Below are positions 16,674 to 42,353 of a stretch of 42,486 nt of DNA, one piece after another. Within the stretch, counting starts at the first letter, position 1. Every line of letters starts with the position of its first letter. The DNA is taken from the IMG/VR virus record IMGVR_UViG_3300010362_000041, positions 1 to 42,486 of that record; one strand, 5' to 3'. Below the pieces are notes generated by a model that was not told the DNA's origin, ran no database searches, and saw only the letters and a list, made by a program, of their open reading frames with translations. The stretch is from a virus (taxonomy: Duplodnaviria > Caudoviricetes). Made by a program: the position numbers and the translations under genes.

Positions 16674-18089
16674 TTACTTGACGACGCTCAGCGCGGCCTT
16701 GCCCGCCGGCGTATGCCCGAGCAGTTCGCGCCGGCGCGCCTCGCTCATTTCGGTCTGATTGTTCTCGTCGGCCTTCAGGACCTTGTCGCCTGGCCCGACG
16801 GTAAGCTCCTCCGTGAGCTTGTGAGAGGGGCGCGCTTCGATCATCGCGCGCAGATTGGCGACGCGAGAGCCTTTCTCGAGCGGCCGCTCCTGATCGTCGG
16901 CCGCCGCGATCAGATATTGCGAGATCGTCGGATCCTTCTCGGCCGGGAAGAGCCTGCCGGCGGCGATCTGTGCCCCGACGAAGGCCTCGGCCTCGGCCTT
17001 GGTTTTCTCCTCGAGCTGCGCGGCGAGCTGCTTCCGCAGGCGATCGGCCTCGACCTCGGCCTCGGCGACTCGCGCGCCTTCTTCTTCGACGGATTTGGCC
17101 GGCTCCTGCGTCTCTGGCGTTTCGATCGCCTTCGCCGGCGATTCTCCCTTGATGGCGGCTATAAGGCGCGCCTTCATACCTTCGAATCTCTCTTCAAGAG
17201 TCATGTCGTCTTCCTCCGCGGCTTCGACAATCTCTTCGACATCGGCCGCCATTTTGGGTTTGTATCTGCGCGGCTTTTTGCCGGCCGCAAGATCCGAAAT
17301 AACCTGCTCAAACGAGCCGAGCCGATCGGCCAGGCCGGCCTCGACGGCCTTCTGTCCGACGAACACGGCACCCTGTCCGAAGTCGCTCAGAACGGTCTCG
17401 GCGCTTACGCGCCGATTGCGAGCGACGGTCTCGACGAAGACGTCGGCCAGATCATCGACCATCGCCTGGATCTGATCCTTGCCCGACTCCGTCGTCGGAT
17501 TCGGGCGCTTCTTCGGCGACTGGCTCGAGACGAACTCGATCTCGCGGGCGCTCTTCTTCTCCGGATTCGGCCAGGCGGCGACGACGCCGATCGAGCCGAT
17601 CATCGCCGTCGCGTCGGCGACGATCTCGTCCGCTGCGCTCGCTATCCAATAGGCCGCCGACGCGCCGAGGCCGTCCACGTAAGCGACGATCGGCTTCCGG
17701 CCGCGCGCCTCGAAGACCATCTGAGCGAACTCATTCACGCCGGCGACTTCCCCGCCTGGCGAATCTATGTTGAGCACGATCGAGGAGACGGCGGAGTCGT
17801 TAAGCGCCGCGGCGAAATCCTTGGAGAGGCTCTCGATCGTCGCGCCTCCGGAGATGTCGGTGAAGAAGTCGGTGTATCGGAAAATCGGCCCGGTGACCGG
17901 GACGACGGCGACGCCGCCCTCGCGGAGCCTGGCGCTCTCGGCGCCGTCCATCCTGCGCGATCGCTTCGCGGCGACGGCCTCGAAGTCCGGCAGATGCTCG
18001 CGCGTCGAGATCTCGAGGATCTGCTGGAGCGCATCCGGAGTGATCGCCCACGGTATCGAACAGGCCAGAGTGAAAGCCCGAAACGCCAT
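16674..18089 (-). CDS. S49 (gpC-like) prohead protease with C-terminal scaffold
   Basis: IDSPGGEV, GASAAYWIASAAD, GSIGV motifs; ATG overlaps portal stop (TAATG). Confidence 0.92.
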   Translation of the reverse strand: MAFRAFTLACSIPWAITPDALQQILEISTREHLPDFEAVAAKRSRRMDGAESARLREGGVAVVPVTGPIFRYTDFFTDISGGATIESLSKDFAAALNDSAVSSIVLNIDSPGGEVAGVNEFAQMVFEARGRKPIVAYVDGLGASAAYWIASAADEIVADATAMIGSIGVVAAWPNPEKKSAREIEFVSSQSPKKRPNPTTESGKDQIQAMVDDLADVFVETVARNRRVSAETVLSDFGQGAVFVGQKAVEAGLADRLGSFEQVISDLAAGKKPRRYKPKMAADVEEIVEAAEEDDMTLEERFEGMKARLIAAIKGESPAKAIETPETQEPAKSVEEEGARVAEAEVEADRLRKQLAAQLEEKTKAEAEAFVGAQIAAGRLFPAEKDPTISQYLIAAADDQERPLEKGSRVANLRAMIEARPSHKLTEELTVGPGDKVLKADENNQTEMSEARRRELLGHTPAGKAALSVVK

Positions 18090-19612
18090 TACGAAGCCCT
18101 CCTCGCCTTGATCGTGACGAACGCGCCGGATCGAGGCCTGAAAGTTATGCGCCCCTGCGGTACAGGCGTTTGTACTTGCTGATCGGCGATCTGCGCCTGG
18201 CGCGCGATCCCTCGAGGCTGCTCGCCAGGCAGAGGAGCCGGCAGGCCGAGCTGCTCGGTGACCGAGTTCCATTGCGAGTCGGTGATCTCAGGCGAGAGCG
18301 CGACTGCGGCCGTCGCGTCCGTCGCCCAGTCGCGGCGCTCCGTATCGCCGAGGCTGACGGCAGGACAGAAGCGCAGGGCCTCATCGCCGAAGTTGTAGCG
18401 GATTGCCTTCTCGATCAGATCGCATTTGATCGTCCTGGCGATCTTGCCCTTCAACCACCAAACGAGGAGATCGAGCACGCCCATGTGAGTCTGGCTCTGC
18501 GCGCGCGTACCGAACTGCGCCTCGTTCGTGGCCAAAGTTTGAAAGAGAATGCCCTTCGAGATTTGCGAGTCGGCGACGTTGATCGCGCGCTCGAAGCCGG
18601 TGCCCTCGCCTTCGACGTCGAGCTGATCGACCTCGGCGCCGTTCGGAACGACCGCGGCCGACGCGTTCTTGAGGCCGAGGAGCGCCTGGAGCATCGCCTC
18701 CGCCGGCGTCAGCGGCTTCGCTCCGTCCTTCGGCGTGCCGTCGCTGTTACGCTGGACGTCGCCGGGCTGCTTCGGCGCCGTCTTGCCGATGATCGAAGGC
18801 AGCGCGCAGTTATCGAGCCAGCGCTTATATTCCGGCCAGGTCATGCATTTGAACATCCATGCCGTATAGACCGGCCTGATCGAACTGCGGCCGCGAGGAT
18901 CCTCGTCCTCTTCGTGCAAAGCCAGGTGAAAGAACTTTTCGCGGGGGATAACGACGCGCGCCGGCAGGCTCAGAACCGGCGTTCGCGGAGTGAAGCCGAG
19001 ATGATTCCAGAAACGATCGACGACGAAGTCGAGCGTCCGGTAATCCTTTTGAGCCAGGCGATCGGGCAGGAGCTTCCCGCGGTCGACGCCGCTTTCGACG
19101 AGCTTCCAGGTGATTTCGGCGGTCTTATGGCCATACGTCAGCGCGCCTTCGACGATCCCTTCGAGAGTCTCCTCGAGCGGCTTGCGCAAGTATGAGATCG
19201 AGCGCTCGCAAAATTGCGCGATCTCGAGCGCTCGATCGAACTCCGGCGCGTCGTCGTCCACCGGCTTACCTTCGACGGCCGGCGCGAGCTGCATTCCGTC
19301 GGCGAGTGCCATCTGGACGAGCGTCCGGACATCGCTCAAGACTTCCGGATCGTTGAGCATCTGCCGATACGTCTCGAAGGTAACTTCGGGCGCCCTCGGA
19401 TCGTGGGATTGAGACGGTATCTGGCGCTCGAGAGCGCCATACGCCTGGCCGTAGGCGGCGACGTATTCGACGCTCGGATCGAAATCGGCTGCGGCCGAGG
19501 ACTCGCCGCCACTGGAGGGGGAAATGGTCAAGGCGGCGGTTTGAACGTGATCGGGCTTCAGCGCGTTCGCGCCGGCGACCTGGAATCTGTTTTTGTTTCG
19601 CCTTTTGCCCAT
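18089..19612 (-). CDS. Portal protein (DUF935 / Mu gp29-like)
   Basis: ALTYGH..AEITW, PRGRSSIR, QISKGILFQTLAT..QFGTRAQSQTH motifs. Confidence 0.9.
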   Translation of the reverse strand: MGKRRNKNRFQVAGANALKPDHVQTAALTISPSSGGESSAAADFDPSVEYVAAYGQAYGALERQIPSQSHDPRAPEVTFETYRQMLNDPEVLSDVRTLVQMALADGMQLAPAVEGKPVDDDAPEFDRALEIAQFCERSISYLRKPLEETLEGIVEGALTYGHKTAEITWKLVESGVDRGKLLPDRLAQKDYRTLDFVVDRFWNHLGFTPRTPVLSLPARVVIPREKFFHLALHEEDEDPRGRSSIRPVYTAWMFKCMTWPEYKRWLDNCALPSIIGKTAPKQPGDVQRNSDGTPKDGAKPLTPAEAMLQALLGLKNASAAVVPNGAEVDQLDVEGEGTGFERAINVADSQISKGILFQTLATNEAQFGTRAQSQTHMGVLDLLVWWLKGKIARTIKCDLIEKAIRYNFGDEALRFCPAVSLGDTERRDWATDATAAVALSPEITDSQWNSVTEQLGLPAPLPGEQPRGIARQAQIADQQVQTPVPQGRITFRPRSGAFVTIKARRAS

Positions 19613-19657
19613 AAAACACAAAAGGCCGATTCGCCCATCACTGGACGAATCAGCCTT
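19613..19657 (-). terminator. Intrinsic terminator immediately upstream of portal gene
   Basis: AAGGCTGATTCGTCCA-GTGA-TGGGCGAATCGGCCTT followed by TTGTGTTTT. Confidence 0.8.
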
Positions 19658-19719
19658 CGAGAGACGCTTTCCGCTTGGCGCTCGCGGCGCGCGCGGGAGA
19701 TTTTATAGATCGAAGCCGG

Positions 19720-19749
19720 ATTCTACGGACTAAGTCTTTTCGATTGCAA
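19720..19749 (-). promoter_or_regulatory. Sigma70-like late promoter
   Basis: TTGCAA-18 nt-TAGAAT pointing to portal operon. Confidence 0.6.
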
Positions 19750-19766
19750 GAGAAATCTGATGCGAG

Positions 19767-19799
19767 CCCCGCTCTACGCTGTGAGAGCATAGAGCGGGG
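19767..19799 (-). terminator. Hairpin after 48-aa gene
   Basis: CCCCGCTCTATGCT-CTCAC-AGCGTAGAGCGGGG. Confidence 0.65.
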
Positions 19800-19811
19800 G
19801 AAATGGCCTAA

Positions 19812-19958
19812 CTATTTCTTCTTCTTGCTAGGCTTGTTTGCAGTTTGAGTCAACGCCGAGGCCGCTACCCTGCGAACAGGTTTAGGGGTCTTGGGGTCGC
19901 TCAGGAGTCGCGACGCAATAGTCGCGATGGGTTTTGATGTTTTCTCGTTTTTCGCCAT
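19812..19958 (-). CDS. 48-aa basic microprotein
   Basis: AGGAGA SD; MAKNEKTSKPIATIASRLLSDPKTPKPVRRVAASALTQ resembles a recurrent small mobile-element protein family. Confidence 0.75.
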   Translation of the reverse strand: MAKNEKTSKPIATIASRLLSDPKTPKPVRRVAASALTQTANKPSKKKK

Positions 19959-20020
19959 AAAGCTTTCTCCTGGCAGAGGTTGATATTTACGAAAGAAAAA
20001 AGGCGTGCTACCCTGACATT

Positions 20021-20098
20021 GACAGAGATACACCGACCGCTGAACAAGTGCTACGAACCTGCCAAGAACGTCTTACTTGTTCAGCGGTTTCCTTTTTA
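20021..20098 (+). ncRNA. Putative ~80-nt antisense sRNA
   Basis: TTTACG-17-TACCCT promoter with TG extension (19986-20014); perfect 14-bp stem 20036-20049/20075-20088 followed by T-tract. Confidence 0.5.
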
Positions 20099-20206
20099 TC
20101 TTCCAACGGCCAAACCATTAATATACAATATGCTGTAGACGTTCAAGCACATAATGCGCTCTATTGTGGTCTGCGCCTACTGGCGTATTAGGTTCCACCT
20201 CCACAT

Positions 20207-20296
20207 TCATGGCGGAACTTCGATGATGATGGTGATCCACCCTATCTTGATTTTGATGATTATGCTGCGGTAACCCAAACTACTCCTATGCTTCAT
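20207..20296 (-). CDS. 29-aa microprotein MKHRSSLGYRSIIIKIKIGWITIIIEVPP
   Basis: GGGAGG SD close to ATG; Ile-rich composition. Confidence 0.4.
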   Translation of the reverse strand: MKHRSSLGYRSIIIKIKIGWITIIIEVPP

Positions 20297-20435
20297 ATTC
20301 CTCCCGTTAAAATCTTACACACCTATGATTTACCGCTAGGGATTGAAAAATGGTGATGGCTCGGATAGGATATGGCCGAAACCATGCACCGCCCAAGCGG
20401 TGTTTATTGTGCGTCACACATTAGGTTTCTACGTG

Positions 20436-20468
20436 ATGGCCAACGCGGTCACCTCCGCAGTTGGCCAT
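20436..20468 (-). terminator. Hairpin after 274-aa gene
   Basis: ATGGCCAAC.GCGG...CCGC.GTTGGCCAT inverted repeat 2 nt after stop. Confidence 0.65.
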
Positions 20469-20470
20469 TT

Positions 20471-21295
20471 CTATGCAACCAGTTTGTACTGATTGCCCAC
20501 CTTCTCAAACTCCTTTCCGTTCCTCAACGTGCCATGTATGGAAATGGGCTTAACGGCTTGTCCAAGTTTCTCGCTCATCGCTTGGATGATAGAGTCAGCC
20601 GTATGTAATTCCCCATCTTGCATAAACTCACGGATGGCCACCCTAACTGGGCTTAGTTCTGGTTGTTTTACATCTTCTGGCACTACGATCCGCTTTCTCT
20701 CAGGTACGTTGCGCGGCTTCAATTTTGAGGTTTGTTTCTTTTTGGGCTTTACGGCCTTCACCTTGGCGGTAACTCTCCCATTACGAGACTGTTTCACCTT
20801 GGGCTTATTCTTGGCCGTAGTCTTCGATCCTGATGATTTCGCGTTTCCGTAGAAGGATCGCAGGCCAATATAGCCATTACCGACACTGACGAAATCTTGC
20901 CAATTATTTCTGAGCAAGGCGACGGATAGGGTTCTTTTCGGGTCTATTCCGCCCACCTTACAGCCGCCCATTCTCAAAACATCTAGCAATTCATCTAGCG
21001 CGACGGCGTGGCCAACTCTGGTCAGATAGTCTCTCGCCGCTTCGCCGTGCGATTTAGTGAAGTACTCATCTGGACGGATGTCGAGCCTTTTCGAGTTCGC
21101 GTATGTGTTACGCTCGGTATTAAGACCTGCAGTGAAAATAGGCAAGTTGAGGATTGCTGAGTCTTCAGCCTCTACTTCAAGCTCCTGCTCAAGCTGCCGG
21201 ATGGTTTGCACCATGGGTTGAAGCTCATCGAGCTTCTTTTGCAGTTGCTGCTCAAAATACTTCAATGTCTGTCTGAGGGAATCTTGTGATTCCAT
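20471..21295 (-). CDS. Moron protein: coiled coil + winged-helix-like domain + Lys-rich linker + second winged-helix-like domain
   Basis: GGAGGT SD, own promoter and terminator, lower GC; IRPDEYF..SHGEAARDYL...LLDVLRMGG...DFVSVGNGYIGL and AIREFM..GELHTADSII...SIHGTL...EFEKVGNQYKL. Confidence 0.7.
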   Translation of the reverse strand: MESQDSLRQTLKYFEQQLQKKLDELQPMVQTIRQLEQELEVEAEDSAILNLPIFTAGLNTERNTYANSKRLDIRPDEYFTKSHGEAARDYLTRVGHAVALDELLDVLRMGGCKVGGIDPKRTLSVALLRNNWQDFVSVGNGYIGLRSFYGNAKSSGSKTTAKNKPKVKQSRNGRVTAKVKAVKPKKKQTSKLKPRNVPERKRIVVPEDVKQPELSPVRVAIREFMQDGELHTADSIIQAMSEKLGQAVKPISIHGTLRNGKEFEKVGNQYKLVA

Positions 21296-21336
21296 GTATC
21301 ACCTCCAAACTTTGAGTTTATCGTGCGTCGCCGCAG

Positions 21337-21366
21337 ATTATGCCAGCGCAGATGAGAAGGCGTCAA
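21337..21366 (-). promoter_or_regulatory. Promoter of 274-aa moron gene
   Basis: TTGACG-18 nt-CATAAT with TG extension. Confidence 0.7.
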
Positions 21367-21621
21367 GAGGAACGTAATTTGCCTTCCGCGAAGACTTGCA
21401 AACAAGCAGGTAGTGAGGCAATACGATTCCATCGTATTCACCTTAAACCCTGTATATTACAATAGATGCAGGCTTGAATTCTCCCGACACTGTGTCGTAG
21501 AACCTACGGGTTTATCACCTGAATTTATTTATTGAATAATGGCCGACTATCGTTGATTCGAGATGATGCAGGCGTATTTTAGGTAAATGCCAGATTTTGT
21601 AACCCTGTCGTGGAACTGCTC

Positions 21622-21976
21622 TCAAGACAGCGAAGGCCAGAAGATCTCTCTTCCGGCCTTCGCTGTTTCTGACGTATCAGGATGTGTTCTCTCACTTGCT
21701 GTTTGAGATGCATCCTCCTTGCCGCACCACGCCTTGAAGGGTTGTCTTTACAGATCAACCAACCGCAGTCCCCTCGGCAGGAGACGCTTCCCCCGCTCAG
21801 ACTCTTTTGCCAGGAGCGTACTCTGGCGGAAAGGATACTCACGGGAAACAGGTCGCTATCCGCCGTCAGACGGATGCCGAATTAAAGCGGTCAAGAGTAT
21901 CCACTACATCAACCAAGACTTAAGCTTGGCCATAGTTGATACCCTCCTTTCAGCAACAATGATTGCTCATCGCGCC
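21622..21976 (-). ncRNA. Putative ~350-nt structured RNA containing a 9-codon ORF (21904-21933)
   Basis: Extended -10 TGtTAAGAT at 21983-21991; at least six consecutive stems with G-U pairs only on the minus strand; GNRA loops; 18-bp terminal hairpin 21627-21666. Confidence 0.6.
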
Positions 21977-22148
21977 GCACGCATCTTAACACAAACAGAA
22001 ATCGAGCACTCAGTAATTGACCGTGACATATAAAAATGTCAGTGCGACATCGAGCGCGGATTGATGTTTACAGGGTGTTTGAATGCCGAGTTTACCAAGC
22101 GCAATGGCGGCAGCCTTGTTCTCCGTCGTCGGCGACATTATCAGAAAT

Positions 22149-23597
22149 CTACCGAACGATCAGAGATTTTCTCGCCCCTCCGATCGCTGGCGCATCTTCC
22201 GGATCGATCAACCGTGCCATCAGGCCATATCGCGCAGCGTCGGCCGGGTCATCGCCGCCCATTCCTTCATCGTCAATATCCCACTTCAATACATCCTCGG
22301 GCTTGTTCGGATTATGTTGAAGCGCGGGAATACATTCGATCAGCCGCTCGCAGTCCCTCGCGATCTTGAGCCGAGCGGGGATTGGGTTTTCCGCCCGGCC
22401 CGGGTCGCCGAGCAGGTCGAGCATCTCGCCCCAGCCTGAAATGCGGTCATTCGGAGCGGCGACCATATACACGCCGTGCGCCTCGTACTGCTGTGCGATA
22501 GTTTTCGCGTTCTCGTCACCTTTGTTCGCGAAGACGTCCGGCCCAGCGAAAACCGGAATGTCGGGAATGTCCCTGCCGTGTTTGGCCGCGATCCGCCGCA
22601 TCGCTCCGGCATGGTCTCGCGGAAGCTTTTTAGCCTCGACGTGTTCGCCGGTGATAATGATCTCGCCGTCGAACTCGGTCAGCAGGTAGAACGCCGACGG
22701 GTGAGTGAAGCCGTAGTCGAACGCGCCCCACACAGGCCAGTGGGCCGGAATGATGAACGGCTCGCAGGTGTGCTCGTCGTAATTCCAGGTCGAGAAGTAC
22801 TGGCCGGCGGCGATGTCCCAGTCGCCGAATCTATACGCGCGCAGCTTCCAGCCGGTGTTGTCTTCGAGCTTCTTCGTATACCCGGCGTCCACAAACCTGT
22901 TGTCGTCCACAGTAGCGAAGATAAAGCGCGTGTCGGTCTCGCAGGCTTTCCGCGCCGGCATAATAAATCGCTCCTTGAACCAGACATGGCCGATGTTGCC
23001 CGGATTCGTCGTGGCGTAAATCCGAGGCCGCCAGTTCGGCTTCGATGTGCGGTTCGAGTCCCTGAGTGTTTTGTACTTGGACAGACTGAGCGTCGTGGCC
23101 TCTTCGATCACGATCACGTCATATTCGAGGCCTAGGTATTGATCGACCTCGGCTTCCGTCCTGAAGTGGCCGATTACGATCCGCGAGTCATTGGCGAAGG
23201 TGATTATGCCCTGGCGGTTGTAATCGTGCGGGACGTGCCGGAGTACGTTACGGCGCAGGTCCTCGAACTGCTCGCGGGCGTTCTTCGCCACCTTGCGAAT
23301 ATAGAGAGTCTTCAGGCCTTCGCAGCGCTGCGAATCGTCGAGCGCGACCTGGGCGAAGGCGGCATGCGATTTTCCTGGCCCCCTCGCGCCTCCGAATCCG
23401 ATCTGATCCGGACCGCCAGGCAGATCGGCGAGTCTGCAAGCGGCATGGAATTGGAGTTGCTTCGGCTGCGGAATGTAATGGCCGCGGAAGAAGTTTTTGA
23501 TCTGATCTCGAGGCGCGCCGAGTTCGCGCGCAGTTATGGCGCATTCCGTCGCGAGCGTTTCAATATGCCGGAGCTGGCTATTTTTTGCCTTTGCCAT
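22149..23597 (-). CDS. terL: Terminase large subunit
   Basis: GGARGPGKS Walker A, VIVIEEAT Walker B, TTNPG, FDYGFTHP nuclease, DDPADAARY. Confidence 0.97.
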   Translation of the reverse strand: MAKAKNSQLRHIETLATECAITARELGAPRDQIKNFFRGHYIPQPKQLQFHAACRLADLPGGPDQIGFGGARGPGKSHAAFAQVALDDSQRCEGLKTLYIRKVAKNAREQFEDLRRNVLRHVPHDYNRQGIITFANDSRIVIGHFRTEAEVDQYLGLEYDVIVIEEATTLSLSKYKTLRDSNRTSKPNWRPRIYATTNPGNIGHVWFKERFIMPARKACETDTRFIFATVDDNRFVDAGYTKKLEDNTGWKLRAYRFGDWDIAAGQYFSTWNYDEHTCEPFIIPAHWPVWGAFDYGFTHPSAFYLLTEFDGEIIITGEHVEAKKLPRDHAGAMRRIAAKHGRDIPDIPVFAGPDVFANKGDENAKTIAQQYEAHGVYMVAAPNDRISGWGEMLDLLGDPGRAENPIPARLKIARDCERLIECIPALQHNPNKPEDVLKWDIDDEGMGGDDPADAARYGLMARLIDPEDAPAIGGARKSLIVR

Positions 23598-23991
23598 AGG
23601 CCTTATCGAGCGCAGCGGCGAGCGGATCGAGTAACGGCTTGCCGCCGCTCGTCACGTCAACCTCCGAGCGCTCTCTGTATTTGTCCGGCTTGTGCGCCTT
23701 CAGGAGAAAGATCATCAGGAGATCGCTCTTCTTCTTTGCGCGCTGCCAGGCCTCGGCCTCGAGGATCTCGATTGCGGCTTCCTTCGCGTCTTCCCATTGA
23801 GCGGCGAATTCGGGCATCTGCTTTTTGTGTTCATATGCGGTTTCTCTGGTGATCCCCGCCCCCTTGCATGACAGCGTCACATTGCAGGTCGTGCCAAGCA
23901 GTTCAATGAATCGAGGATGCCATGACGTATCAACCGGCTTTTTGCCTTTGCCCTTTTTTTTAGGTGTCAGATTGGTCAGTTTCTCACCCAT
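23578..23991 (-). CDS. terS: Terminase small subunit
   Basis: N-terminal HTH; EAEAWQRA..SDLLMIFLLKAHKPDKYRE; overlaps terL start. Confidence 0.88.
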   Translation of the reverse strand: MGEKLTNLTPKKKGKGKKPVDTSWHPRFIELLGTTCNVTLSCKGAGITRETAYEHKKQMPEFAAQWEDAKEAAIEILEAEAWQRAKKKSDLLMIFLLKAHKPDKYRERSEVDVTSGGKPLLDPLAAALDKAYGKGKK

Positions 23992-38877: not shown

Positions 38878-39102
38878 TTAGGCCGCGACGGCGACTTGCC
38901 GCGAATAGAGAAGATCTATAACGTCTTGTCCGTAAAAATCTGCCAGATCGCAGAGCAGTTCATAGGAGACGTTTTGTCCGGCCTCAGCTCTGTAAACGGT
39001 TCCCGAATGTATCTTTAAGGCTTCCGCCACTTCCGGTTGAGACATTCCCTTTTGTTCGCGCCAAGTCTTTAGCTTGCCCGGGTTGTAATGAGTCGAGTTC
39101 AT
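38878..39102 (-). CDS. Cro-like XRE HTH protein (leaderless)
   Basis: LKTWREQKGMSQPEVAEALKIHSGTVYRAEAG; divergent from repressor. Confidence 0.9.
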   Translation of the reverse strand: MNSTHYNPGKLKTWREQKGMSQPEVAEALKIHSGTVYRAEAGQNVSYELLCDLADFYGQDVIDLLYSRQVAVAA

Positions 39103-39108
39103 TGACCG

Positions 39109-39200
39109 AATATATCTATGACGACAGACGAGGTCAACAAAAAATGTTGTGGAAATACTGATTGCTCTCAGCATATTTTGCAGGCAACATTAAATGTTGA
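39109..39200. promoter_or_regulatory. Lysis-lysogeny switch: Cro promoter and operators
   Basis: Minus-strand TTGACC-17-TATATT (39137-39109); operators at 39134-39150, 39184-39200 and a degenerate one at 39168-39184. Confidence 0.82.
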
Positions 39201-39201
39201 G

Positions 39202-39690
39202 ATGACACAAAAACGAACGGAAAAGCCGTTTATTGACTGGGAGATGTTCGGCCTTTGGATGCGCAAGCGGCGCGAAGAGAAGGGTCTGTCACAGGAGGCC
39301 GCGGCTGAAGAAGTAAAGATCCATCCGCAAACTTGGTATCGCCTCGAAGGCGGCGCGAGCACAAAACACTCTACAATGCTCAGGATCGCTCAATTTTTAG
39401 CGATTGATAAAGCGGATCTCAATCGAACAATGGCCGCAGTGTTCAAGGCGCTTTCGACGGTTCAGCGAGGAACCGTTCGGCAAGAGACCATAGAGGACGC
39501 TCTCGACCGCGCCCTCTTCTTCGAGCAAAAGGGCGTTACTGAGGACGATCGAAATATCGTTCGCCCATTGCTCGAAAGCGCCGATCGAATGCTCGAATTA
39601 TTGATGGCTCGACATACTCACACAATCATAGATCTTGACGACGTAACCTCCGAGGCTGAGCGATCGAGAGATCGTCGAAAAAAGAGCTGA
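39202..39690 (+). CDS. CI-like XRE repressor (no peptidase domain)
   Basis: FGLWMRKRREEKGLSQEAAAEEVKIHPQTWYRLEGG; divergent from Cro. Confidence 0.88.
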   Translation: MTQKRTEKPFIDWEMFGLWMRKRREEKGLSQEAAAEEVKIHPQTWYRLEGGASTKHSTMLRIAQFLAIDKADLNRTMAAVFKALSTVQRGTVRQETIEDALDRALFFEQKGVTEDDRNIVRPLLESADRMLELLMARHTHTIIDLDDVTSEAERSRDRRKKS

Positions 39691-40494: not shown

Positions 40495-40812
40495 ATGCAA
40501 GAACCATCCAAATTCTGTTCAGCCTGCGGACAGCAGAATTATATAGGCGCTGCCTGTTGCCATTGGTGTCAGGCCCGATTCCCGGCCTCGCCGAATACTC
40601 CAGAAAGGAATCAACCAATGCGACCCACTTATGATGAAAAATTCCGGGAAAGACATGAAGTGGTAGTAGTTGATTTCAAAATGAGCTTCAACTCAATGGT
40701 CATCTTTATGATCAAATGGGCAATCGCCGCGATCCCGGCAATGTTCGTGCTGTTCTTCGCCGGCATGCTCTTGATCTCGATCCTGGCCGGGATGAGAGGC
40801 CCGAGGTATTGA
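40495..40812 (+). CDS. Zinc-ribbon membrane protein
   Basis: AAGGA SD; CSACG...CHWC; VVVVDFKMSFNSMVIFMIKWAIAAIPA + TM. Confidence 0.75.
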   Translation: MQEPSKFCSACGQQNYIGAACCHWCQARFPASPNTPERNQPMRPTYDEKFRERHEVVVVDFKMSFNSMVIFMIKWAIAAIPAMFVLFFAGMLLISILAGMRGPRY

Positions 40813-42353
40813 TCGGAATTATCTTCGCCCGCGAATCGAACCGATACGACAAAACCGTCTACTCGTTGAAGAGCCAGGTCGAGGCCTGCGAGGCGGCCGC
40901 CAAGGCCGACGGCGTTAAGATCTTCCGCGTCTTCCGCGAGCAGTTCAGCGGGCGAGATCTCAGCAAAATGCCCAAGCTCGGCGAGCTGCGGCAGCTCCTT
41001 GAATCCACGCCCGGGAGAAAAAAGGTTTACTGCTACGCTCAGGACAGGCTTGTCCGCGGCCGGCGTGGCTATCACATTTTTCGGATCCTCTCCGAGTTCG
41101 ACGAATGGGAGACGGACGTCTTCTTCATCCGCGACAACGTCGACACGACGACTTTCGCCGGCCAGTTTCAGATCCTCTTCAAAGGACAAAAAGCCGCCTC
41201 GGAGCCCGACGATATCCTCGATCGGACAATGAGCGGGAAGATAAGGCGGATCAAGGAAGGGAAGATCCCAGGCTTCGGGCGGAACAAATACGGCTATACA
41301 AAAAATCAGGAGACCGGGAAGGCGACGATTAACGAGACCGAGGCCGTCGTCCTGCGAAGAATTGTCCGCCAGCTACTCGCCGGAGATAGTATCAACGAGG
41401 TCGTGCGCCAGCTTAACAGCGAGGGTATCCTTCCGCCTTTTCCTTCTAAAGGCGAGAGTGCGACGAAGCTGGTCAAACACGGGAAATGGTGGACGGCCAC
41501 GCTCGCCCGGCTCCTTCGCGATCCCGCCTACAAAGGTGAAGGGGCCGCGCTGCGCCGGATCAGCGTAAACGGTCGCGTTCAATTCCGGCCGGAGAACGGC
41601 TGGATCAAACTGCCGGAGGAGTGCTATCCGCCGATCATCGCGCCGGCCGATTGGGATCGGCTGCAGGAAATCTTCGATAAGAACTGCGGCGCGAAGACCA
41701 GGAATCGGAAGCGCCCGGCGCTGCTGCGCGGCCTGATCTTCTGCGCCGTATGCGGTCGCCCCTTCTACGTGGCAACCAATTCCGACAAGTCGGGTAATCA
41801 AATGTATTACCGCTGCGCAACTGTTACGGCCCGTATCCTCAACACCGATTTGCCGAAGTGTCCGGTCAGGCAGATCTCCGCTTCATGGATCGAGGAGGCA
41901 ATCTGGCGCGAGGTCGTCGAAAAGATCTCCGACCCTATCAAGCTGCGCGCGGTTCTGGCCGAAGGTCCGGATCAAGACGGCGATCGCCAAGTCGAGGACG
42001 AACTCGAGAGCCTGCGCGCCGAGCTGGCGAAGAAGGACGGCCAGGAGCGCAACCTGGCGCGCGAGTTGCGCGACGCGACGCCGGCGATCGCCAGGACGAT
42101 CAAAGCCGAACTGGAGAGGATCGAGGCGGAGCGCGGCGCGTTGTTCACTCGCCAGGCTGAAATTTCGCGCCGGCGGACGGCGTCCGAAAACCGCCGGCAG
42201 AGAGCCATCCAGGCGGAGCGCCTTATCGCCGGCCTGACGAAAAAGCTCTCCCGCCTGGCGTTCGAGCAAAAGCGGATAATATTGGAGGAGATCGGGGCGC
42301 GAGTGAAGGTTAACGGCAGGGAATTCACCGTGAGCTATTCAATCGGCGGCTAG
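40809..42353 (+). CDS. Large serine recombinase (integrase)
   Basis: IFARES catalytic motif, DRLVR, YGY recombinase domain, LLRGLIFCAVCG...YYRC zinc ribbon, coiled coil; TTG start overlapping upstream TGA. Confidence 0.95.
   Translation: MIGIIFARESNRYDKTVYSLKSQVEACEAAAKADGVKIFRVFREQFSGRDLSKMPKLGELRQLLESTPGRKKVYCYAQDRLVRGRRGYHIFRILSEFDEWETDVFFIRDNVDTTTFAGQFQILFKGQKAASEPDDILDRTMSGKIRRIKEGKIPGFGRNKYGYTKNQETGKATINETEAVVLRRIVRQLLAGDSINEVVRQLNSEGILPPFPSKGESATKLVKHGKWWTATLARLLRDPAYKGEGAALRRISVNGRVQFRPENGWIKLPEECYPPIIAPADWDRLQEIFDKNCGAKTRNRKRPALLRGLIFCAVCGRPFYVATNSDKSGNQMYYRCATVTARILNTDLPKCPVRQISASWIEEAIWREVVEKISDPIKLRAVLAEGPDQDGDRQVEDELESLRAELAKKDGQERNLARELRDATPAIARTIKAELERIEAERGALFTRQAEISRRRTASENRRQRAIQAERLIAGLTKKLSRLAFEQKRIILEEIGARVKVNGREFTVSYSIGG

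Follow-up and report, generated by a model that had tools for sequence, protein, structure and literature searches.

A candidate structured RNA gene in the terminase-portal interval of a temperate soil phage, and its recurrence in soil DNA and RNA libraries

We describe a short stretch of the minus strand (21622-21991) of a phage genome (Duplodnaviria; Caudoviricetes), located between the gene for the large terminase (TerL) and that for the portal protein. The window analysed, 42,486 bases long, is the whole of IMG/VR virus record IMGVR_UViG_3300010362_000041. In our assessment, the stretch is probably a self-contained, minus-strand gene for a transcribed non-coding RNA, belonging to an undescribed family and carried by the phage as a moron; the morons of lambdoid and HK97-like phages are autonomous cargo units lying between late genes. 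An initial annotation, made from the sequence alone, had suggested at this place a novel phage non-coding RNA of no known family, with a leader-peptide switch or a type I toxin-like mRNA as alternatives. The first of these proposals is borne out by the lack of a match in Rfam, by the presence of the conserved core in all of the sequencing runs examined by contig, by a non-coding pattern of variation and by four compensatory base pairs. Since the unit starts at its own putative -10 box and has neither a conserved reading frame nor a conserved neighbour, it is best regarded as a self-contained RNA gene, and probably not as an mRNA or a leader.

The motifs first noticed (a -10 element, a Shine-Dalgarno (SD) sequence, an open reading frame (ORF) of nine codons, two complementary arms and a series of hairpins) are all present on the minus strand, and are listed in Table 1 together with the predicted helical domains P1 to P4. 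Among the hairpins named, a stem at 21777-21796 is replaced in the RNAfold structure by the pairing of 21785-21768, the two being mutually exclusive; the other hairpins were recovered. The minimum free energy (MFE) of folding was compared with that of dinucleotide-shuffled controls, 100 or 200 shuffles being made per stretch. For the minus strand of 21622-21991 it was -157.2 kcal/mol (z = -5.81), and none of 100 shuffles was as good. The plus strand of the same stretch gave -123.3 kcal/mol (z = -3.71, again 0 of 100), but much of this signal is the 18-bp hairpin at the end of the element, which is symmetric. When that hairpin was left out (21700-21976, 277 nt), the minus strand retained an MFE of -104.4 kcal/mol (z = -2.67, 3 of 200 shuffles as good), as against -74.1 kcal/mol for the plus strand (z = +0.11, 109 of 200). 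The conserved core alone (239 nt) reached -92.0 kcal/mol on the minus strand (z = -2.93, 1 of 200). The strand had initially been read from stem irregularities that are G-U on the minus strand and A-C on the plus strand. Because only the minus strand beats its shuffles once the terminal hairpin is removed, both this strand call and the claim of folding above chance hold for the fold as a whole.

Homologues were sought through a word index of public sequencing runs, with 21296-22148 as the query. Eighteen soil runs, from 15 studies, share 5 to 11% of the sampled words of this region; nine of them are RNA libraries, and one is likely the source sample of the window itself. The core was present in all eight runs that were examined by contig (five RNA and three DNA, from eight studies). 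The ten contigs obtained are 100 to 242 nt long, lie without exception inside 21703-21968, and are 88 to 97% identical to the window (Table 1). At 80% identity or more, no contig of these eight runs matched the flanks of the core within the query (21296-21702 and 21969-22148), and none extended to the 18-bp hairpin, although uncovered does not mean absent. The flanks vary between copies of the core. The loose ends of two contigs from run X3 are diverged copies of the 3' extension that follows the core, one of them lacking its AUG. Within the core, 21855-21885 was free of listed differences in the first set of contigs, and the second set adds a single one, at 21857.

A further copy was reached by way of a plus-strand open frame, 21719-22033, which, used as a protein query, retrieved a single homologue, P0020, encoded on a metagenome contig of 16,325 bp. 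P0020 matches window nucleotides 21737-22006 at 77% identity, while its first 19 residues match the other plus-strand frame, from 21682 (16 of 19 identical); to account for this change of frame, 2 nt must have been inserted near 21737. Homology with the P0020 contig covers 21682-22006 at least, and fades upstream of about 21995. The -10 box falls within it and would be kept there, likely as TATGAT to judge from the substitution L90I. The protein itself is arginine- and cysteine-rich, is absent from IMG/VR and is the sole member of its protein cluster. Its frame is not preserved between the two copies, and the plus-strand ORF behind it is spurious.

The RNA libraries also bear on expression. 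Word depth was 2.2 to 4.5 in the RNA libraries (0.19-1.17 Gb) and 2 to 6 in the DNA libraries (2-7 Gb), so that the former match the depth of DNA libraries several times larger, which is a weak hint of expression. A weak hint of transcription comes from two RNA contigs, from two studies: both stop at 21968 with no loose ends, and the predicted start lies 8 nt upstream of that point. Two RNA contigs end at about 21730.

The variation between copies looks like that of non-coding sequence. The first 25 variant positions are spread over the three codon phases as 6, 10 and 9 (counted by hand), that is, without codon periodicity, and indels are tolerated, namely the insertion in the P0020 contig and a 1-nt deletion near 21742 in X12. 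Besides the nine-codon ORF, the only longer minus-strand frame (87 aa, 21842-21579) is disrupted by both indels in the homologues, and no relatives of it were found in a protein search. Likewise, when the 64 stop-to-stop frames of at least 25 aa in 19700-22200 were considered, those located in 21296-22148 were without a relative in the compared loci. The even codon phases, the indels and the lack of relatives for the 87-aa frame together argue for a non-coding pattern. As for the nine-codon ORF, four of its five substitutions are nonsynonymous (A2T, L4F, K5M, S6T) and one is silent; its AUG and its stop are retained at the same place in every contig that covers them, the stop of X4 having passed from UAG to UGA through two adjacent changes. 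Translation of this mini-ORF is a minority possibility.

Conservation of the fold was assessed by mapping 34 variant positions, 26 from the read contigs and eight from P0020, onto the RNAfold structure. Thirteen are unpaired, eight make up four compensatory pairs (Table 1), six are single changes that keep their pair, and seven break one. The six pair-keeping singles (21930, 21924, 21853, 21782, 21761 and 21745) do so only by way of a G-U pair on the minus strand. The tetraloop of P4 remains of GNRA type, being GUAA in the window, GUGA in X3 and, as deduced from P0020, GCGA; the UACG loop is not kept as UNCG. In a permutation control, the changes of each contig were reassigned to randomly chosen positions that carry the same base. 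For the most diverged DNA contig (contig 2 of X3, with 17 listed changes in 21703-21884), the reference structure had an energy of -100.1 kcal/mol, compared to -84.9 +/- 6.1 kcal/mol for random placements, of which 2 of 300 were as good. The pairs of P2 have probabilities of 0.84 to 1.0, and this hairpin alone folds at about -21.5 to -22.3 kcal/mol. With the ten changes deduced from P0020 its energy would be -22.3 kcal/mol, the same as in the window, the outer helix having slid by 2 nt; in this shifted register AGGAG pairs with CUCCU, and three changes that break pairs in the register of the window turn a wobble into a Watson-Crick pair. P1 has a single inferred variant (21961), which sits in a loop of the 239-nt core fold. 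Judging from these comparisons, we regard the P3 and P4 helices as supported, and the P2 helix as plausible but unsettled.

Several points weigh against a conserved and transcribed RNA. The changes attributed to P0020 are minimal sets deduced from amino acids, and the lists of contig differences are partial (11 of 18 for X4, for example). Seven positions break pairs, five in P2 (21942, 21939, 21904, 21903 and 21894) and two in P3 (21854 and 21802). In the permutation control, contig 2 of X3 gave a fraction of 0.07 when judged by MFE. X4, whose listed changes fall mostly in P2, was no better than random on the reference structure (-91.2 versus -95.0 +/- 4.8 kcal/mol), nor on P2 alone (-17.1 versus -18.5 +/- 3.4 kcal/mol), and the four sets other than contig 2 of X3 were not significant (fractions of 0.19 to 0.78 on the reference structure and 0.12 to 0.32 by MFE). 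The P2 hairpin deduced from P0020 is borderline, 58 of 1000 random sets being equally stable. With regard to expression, the runs consist of assembled contigs, from which strand, RNA ends and true abundance cannot be read. DNA carry-over into the RNA libraries is possible, and depths are low (2-6), so short contigs may stop at strain divergence and not at RNA ends. Finally, the extended -10 element TGTTAAGAT has no -35 partner and was not called in a two-hexamer promoter scan, and the 18-bp hairpin, which lacks a U tract, was not called in the terminator scan.

The RNA matched no known family. A search of the whole window against Rfam 15 gave no match at gathering score, and at E <= 10 only hairpin-shaped noise, the best hit (19.9 bits, for a cut-off of 66) being to the 18-bp hairpin; 21675-21985 alone gave one match, of 15 bits for a cut-off of 30. 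No tRNA or tmRNA gene was found in the window with ARAGORN. Homologous DNA was found neither in phage records (blastn) nor in plasmids, exact patterns of 24, 20 and 20 nt recovered no further contig from IMG/VR, and the whole records of five related phages held no homologue. Five Acidobacteriota genomes gave chance matches only (E >= 0.05), 401 Acidobacteriota genomes searched with BLAST gave two 24-nt chance matches, and 401 genomes of the class of G002 gave one weak match (E = 5e-4), limited to the 18-bp hairpin. A covariance model, R1, built from the window alone with its centroid fold, retrieved only itself in 60 sources (340,638 bases) and nothing in 151 genomes, a single-sequence model being weak. 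The two samples of 401 genomes and that of 151 overlap in part. Among the titles and abstract openings returned by a full-text literature search, there was no description of such an RNA, which is no proof that none exists.

The phage can be considered temperate, as a lysogeny module with a serine integrase and a CI/Cro-like helix-turn-helix (HTH) pair occupies the right end of the record. The placement of the RNA between terminase and portal was confirmed by the positions of TerL and of the portal gene (Table 1); an S49 head protease, a decoration protein and the major capsid protein are further minus-strand genes around it. The RNA opens a low-GC cargo insert, in which it is followed by a sigma-70-like promoter, the gene for a 274-aa protein (P0001) and small ORFs. 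The GC content is 0.475 to 0.49 in 20001-22000, compared to 0.57 to 0.65 in the surrounding phage. Eleven loci around relatives of TerL (56 to 88% identity) were compared with the window by blastn. In four of them (L003, L005, L008 and L009), only 0 to 86 nt separate the TerL end from what precedes the portal gene, and the same junction was recognised by eye in L004, so that five of 11 loci are without the insert; the other six are cut short or have no downstream match. Since these flanks are contiguous in relatives, the window carries about 2.4 kb which they lack. As in morons, an extra unit of deviant composition thus stands between genes that are neighbours in relatives, here with a possible promoter element, a hairpin at its possible end and a temperate carrier. 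In contrast to them, the cargo here would begin with a unit for an RNA and not for a protein, and the same RNA sequence is widespread outside this phage.

The 8-mer AGATTTCT is found on both sides of the insert, at 22143-22150 and 19751-19758. This duplication resembles a target-site duplication; neither inverted terminal repeats nor a transposase were seen. A third occurrence, GATTTCTG, lies at 21996-22003 (repeat D4), just upstream of the -10 box of the RNA. These repeats are hints that the cargo was possibly assembled by more than one insertion at the AGATTTCT/GATTTCTG motif.

Table 1. Positions of the RNA and its parts, of the contigs and compensatory pairs, and of the surrounding genes
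Feature	Position	Strand	Remarks
Extended -10 element TGTTAAGAT	21991-21983	minus	read from sequence
P1, small 5' hairpin	21952-21967	minus	paired differently in the 239-nt core fold and the 370-nt fold
SD-like AAAGGAGG	21950-21943	minus	9 nt before AUG
P2, hairpin	21893-21946	minus	buries SD-like GGAGG and the nine-codon ORF
Nine-codon ORF, ATG..TAG	21933-21904	minus	MAKLKSWLM*
Anti-SD arm GGATACTC	21902-21895	minus	exact complement of GAGTATCC at 21840-21833
P3, multibranch domain	21761-21892	minus	RNAfold
P3a	21853-21880	minus	
P3b	21788-21849	minus	includes UACG-loop hairpin 21809-21827
P3c	21768-21785	minus	
P4, GNRA-tetraloop hairpin	21740-21760	minus	loop GUAA, 21751-21748
Conserved structured core, P1-P4	21730-21968	minus	
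3' extension	21679-21729	minus	less conserved; second AAGGAGG-AUG; hairpin GGAUG/CAUCC
Hairpin within 3' extension	21679-21716	minus	
18-bp hairpin (repeat I1)	21627-21666	minus	GAGA loop; no U tract
Contig of X2 (RNA), 242 nt	21730-21968		8 differences
Contig of X4 (RNA), 228 nt	21731-21951		18 differences
Contig of X9 (RNA), 179 nt	21823-21968		5 differences; diverged continuation beyond
Contig of X6 (RNA), 172 nt	21768-21933		13 differences
Contig of X15 (RNA), 151 nt	21823-21964		4 differences
Contigs of X3 (DNA), 206, 220 and 100 nt	within 21703-21954		22, 4 and 8 differences
Contig of X8 (DNA), 151 nt	21733-21883		6 differences
Contig of X12 (DNA), 151 nt	21743-21877		4 differences
Compensatory pair in P2	21934/21905		U-A to C-G, inferred from P0020
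Compensatory pair in P3	21825/21811		C-G to U-A
Compensatory pair in P4	21758/21742		U-A to C-G; U-G intermediate in X2
Compensatory pair in P4	21756/21744		G-C to A-U
Small terminase	23578-23991	minus	
Large terminase (TerL)	22149-23597	minus	
Cargo insert, 2.4 kb, low GC	19759-22142	minus	between TerL and portal; opened by the candidate RNA
Sigma-70-like promoter TTGACG-18-CATAAT	21366-21337	minus	preceded by TG; promoter scan
P0001, 274-aa protein	20471-21295	minus	
Mu-type portal	18089-19621	minus	
CI/Cro-like HTH pair	38878-39174 and 39118-39690		divergent, repressor-like
Serine integrase (large serine recombinase)	40716-42353	plus	right end of record

The initial annotation had also seen two mutually exclusive folds, the anti-SD arm leaving the SD hairpin to pair with 21840-21833. 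This could make the RNA a translation-sensing leader, in which ribosomes on the nine-codon ORF open the SD hairpin, the arm is freed for its second partner, and downstream expression changes. We consider such a leader unlikely. Its short ORF with a ribosome-binding site does exist (AAAGGAGG, 9 nt, AUG, nine codons), with the AUG and the stop position retained in all covering contigs, including X4 with its UGA; both 8-nt arms are without a listed variant in any copy, and the SD would remain paired in the P0020-inferred variant by means of the shifted register. However, the two folds are not comparable in energy, as forcing the arm onto 21840-21833 gave -97.3 kcal/mol instead of -104.4, that is, 7.1 kcal/mol worse. 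The alternative pairing had a probability of 0.0, and the SD was paired even in the forced fold. A perfect 8-nt complement is in any case expected about once by chance in 370 nt (about 68,000 8-mer pairs x 4^-8, by our own estimate), and invariant arms yield no covariation and thus argue neither for nor against the pairing. The switch was therefore not upheld. The leader-peptide reading fared no better: four of five substitutions alter a residue of the peptide, no regulated gene follows directly, and in none of the eight runs is the sequence downstream conserved along with the element at 80% identity or more. P0001, the next gene, is separated from the 18-bp hairpin by 330 nt, and a promoter of its own is predicted for it.

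The presence of P0001 on the same strand of the same insert, and of a strong hairpin after a structured domain, might also suggest a 5' leader that acts in cis on P0001, or on read-through into it, in the manner of a riboswitch or by binding a protein, with the 18-bp hairpin as its expression platform. Conservation of the RNA without its neighbour would be compatible with this, since in aptamer-like leaders conservation often exceeds that of the genes they control. We nevertheless find such a leader rather improbable: similar upstream sequence was found in none of the 55 other entries with P0001 relatives (blastn, nhmmer, tblastn and covariance model), the RNA and P0001 are 330 nt apart, with a good sigma-70-like promoter in that interval, and, as regards a riboswitch, there was neither an aptamer match in Rfam nor a conserved downstream gene.

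The occurrence of near-identical copies with different flanks in many soils raises the question of a DNA-level module, that is, a mobile or recombination-prone cassette resembling a miniature inverted-repeat transposable element, whose conservation would reflect recent spread and whose transcription would be passive. The duplication of AGATTTCT around the insert and the return of GATTTCTG just upstream of the -10 box would fit such a cassette. Yet terminal inverted repeats are missing from the element, the window has only the one copy, and no other was found in IMG/VR contigs or in the sampled Acidobacteriota genomes (401 + 401 by BLAST, 151 by model), and the compensatory changes, the changes tolerated only as G-U, and the strand-specific fold point to selection at the RNA level; a DNA module is therefore very improbable. 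Hardly credible at all is a toxin mRNA of the type I toxin-antitoxin kind whose ribosome-binding site is sequestered, rejected because there is no toxin-sized reading frame: although a stable hairpin covers both SD and start codon, and the RNA, like hok-type mRNAs, is long and folded, there is no hydrophobic ORF of 20 to 60 aa, the sole SD-linked ORF is a non-hydrophobic one of nine codons, indels interrupt the 87-aa frame in the homologues, no relatives of that frame were found, and the plus strand carries no fold signal for an antisense RNA (z = +0.11).

If the stretch is a self-contained RNA gene, the start site would be near 21976, some 7 nt beyond the extended -10 box, and the transcript would run through P1, the SD-burying P2, the multibranch P3 and the GNRA hairpin P4. 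Its 3' end would be formed close to 21730 or else at the 18-bp hairpin (21666-21627), giving an RNA of about 240 to 350 nt; this hairpin is a possible 3' end or insulator. In a lysogen, expression of the RNA would, as for morons, be driven by a promoter of its own and would not depend on the late operon, which is silent there. A search for antisense targets elsewhere in the phage gave a best E of 0.81, which is at the level of chance. The multibranch fold with its conserved GNRA loop, taken together with the lack of an antisense target in the phage and of an adjacent regulated gene, points with low confidence to an RNA that would act in trans from the prophage as a folded molecule, either binding a protein or adopting a tertiary structure. 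A broader interpretation, which we put forward only tentatively, is that of a new RNA class widespread in soil, four-domained, of about 240 to 350 nt, with its own promoter, expressed in many soils, and travelling between genomes as a cassette that as phage cargo would alter the host. An RNA of this class might serve as a protein scaffold, a ribozyme or a ribosome-directed device, and would not act by simple base pairing.

In size and architecture, the nearest known RNAs are the structured RNAs linked to phages and mobile elements, and the candidate is a member of none of them. GOLLD, ROOL and HEARO are large RNAs of this kind without known function. The candidate shares with them several conserved helices, loops of GNRA or UNCG type, an association with phage or mobile DNA, an occurrence in environmental sequence and the lack of an obvious mRNA target, but it is smaller (about 240 to 350 nt) and without a match in Rfam 15. 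It also has a mini-ORF with buried SD and AUG, a feature not known from classes of the GOLLD, ROOL and HEARO type. With prophage small RNAs (DicF, IpeX and the Pas RNAs of E. coli prophages) it has in common a stand-alone RNA gene in prophage cargo and an expected expression in the lysogen. Compared to base-pairing small RNAs, it is much longer and more branched, lacks a canonical terminator, and shows complementarity to the rest of the phage at chance level only. The hok-type mRNAs and the leader-peptide attenuators resemble it in that a hairpin closes off the ribosome-binding site and a second pairing partner may be available downstream, whereas the candidate has no toxin ORF, conserved peptide, competitive alternative fold or adjacent regulated gene.

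The cargo neighbours of the RNA were analysed as well. P0001 had no match of note in Pfam, PHROG, NCBIfam or PADLOC. Its AlphaFold model (mean predicted local distance difference test, pLDDT, of 75.7) consists of a long N-terminal helix and two winged-helix domains, with a disordered lysine-rich linker. Foldseek gave no match for it at E <= 0.001; the weak matches are to the winged helices of Fur, PerR and ArgR, to the delta subunit of RNA polymerase and to SelB, and a likeness to HARE-HTH (Atlas) is a lead only. The family is small, with 18 relatives besides P0001 itself in a protein search, and its members have this helix, the pair of winged helices and the linker in common, although short forms keep only the first winged helix. 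The loci collected comprise 50 from metagenomes, one of which is the window's own contig, and five from Acidobacteriota genomes; the relatives thus come mostly from soil metagenomes and Acidobacteriota genomes, and none was found in IMG/VR. As no locus had RNA-like sequence upstream of a P0001 relative by any of the four methods listed above, the RNA is not a companion of P0001, and that idea was rejected.

Just downstream of the P0001 stop, 20343-20429 is 76 to 79% identical to the DNA that follows P0001 relatives in three Acidobacteriota genomes (L064 4822-4899, L065 4830-4882 and L066 4828-4907), the proteins themselves being only about 35% identical. A terminator-like hairpin was called on the plus strand inside this conserved DNA, at 20386-20403. 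Either a conserved non-coding element or a bidirectional terminator linked to the gene family may lie here. Further along the insert, an isoleucine-rich ORF of 29 codons, MKHRSSLGYRSIIIKIKIGWITIIIEVPP (20207-20296, minus strand), stands behind GGGAGG, and could be a small membrane peptide or due to chance. At the far end, a small basic ORF (19812-20033, minus strand) matches phrog_5079, of unknown function (E = 5e-9), and is followed by a 14-bp hairpin (19767-19799, I4). Beyond the insert, the portal gene has a leader (19612-19762, minus strand) with a promoter, TTGCAA ... TAGAAT or TAGACT, conserved in all six phages, the counterparts being L003 6361-6512, L005 6371-6524, L008 4846-5008, L009 6396-6552 and L004 1896-2040. 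This leader ends in a terminator-like hairpin and U tract that abut the portal start codon, and seven of its 26 predicted pairs change on both sides and are still paired. It has the appearance of an attenuator which late transcription must read through.

Although the finding alone answers no long-standing question, the RNA, if real, would represent a further family among the larger structured RNAs of bacteria and phages that are without known function, of which there are few. A hint of expression across several independent soil metatranscriptomes is unusual for such an RNA, and the core is defined to 240 nt, usable for synthesis, for probing and as bait. If the RNA is real, the cargo slot between terminase and portal of soil phages can hold RNA genes besides protein genes.

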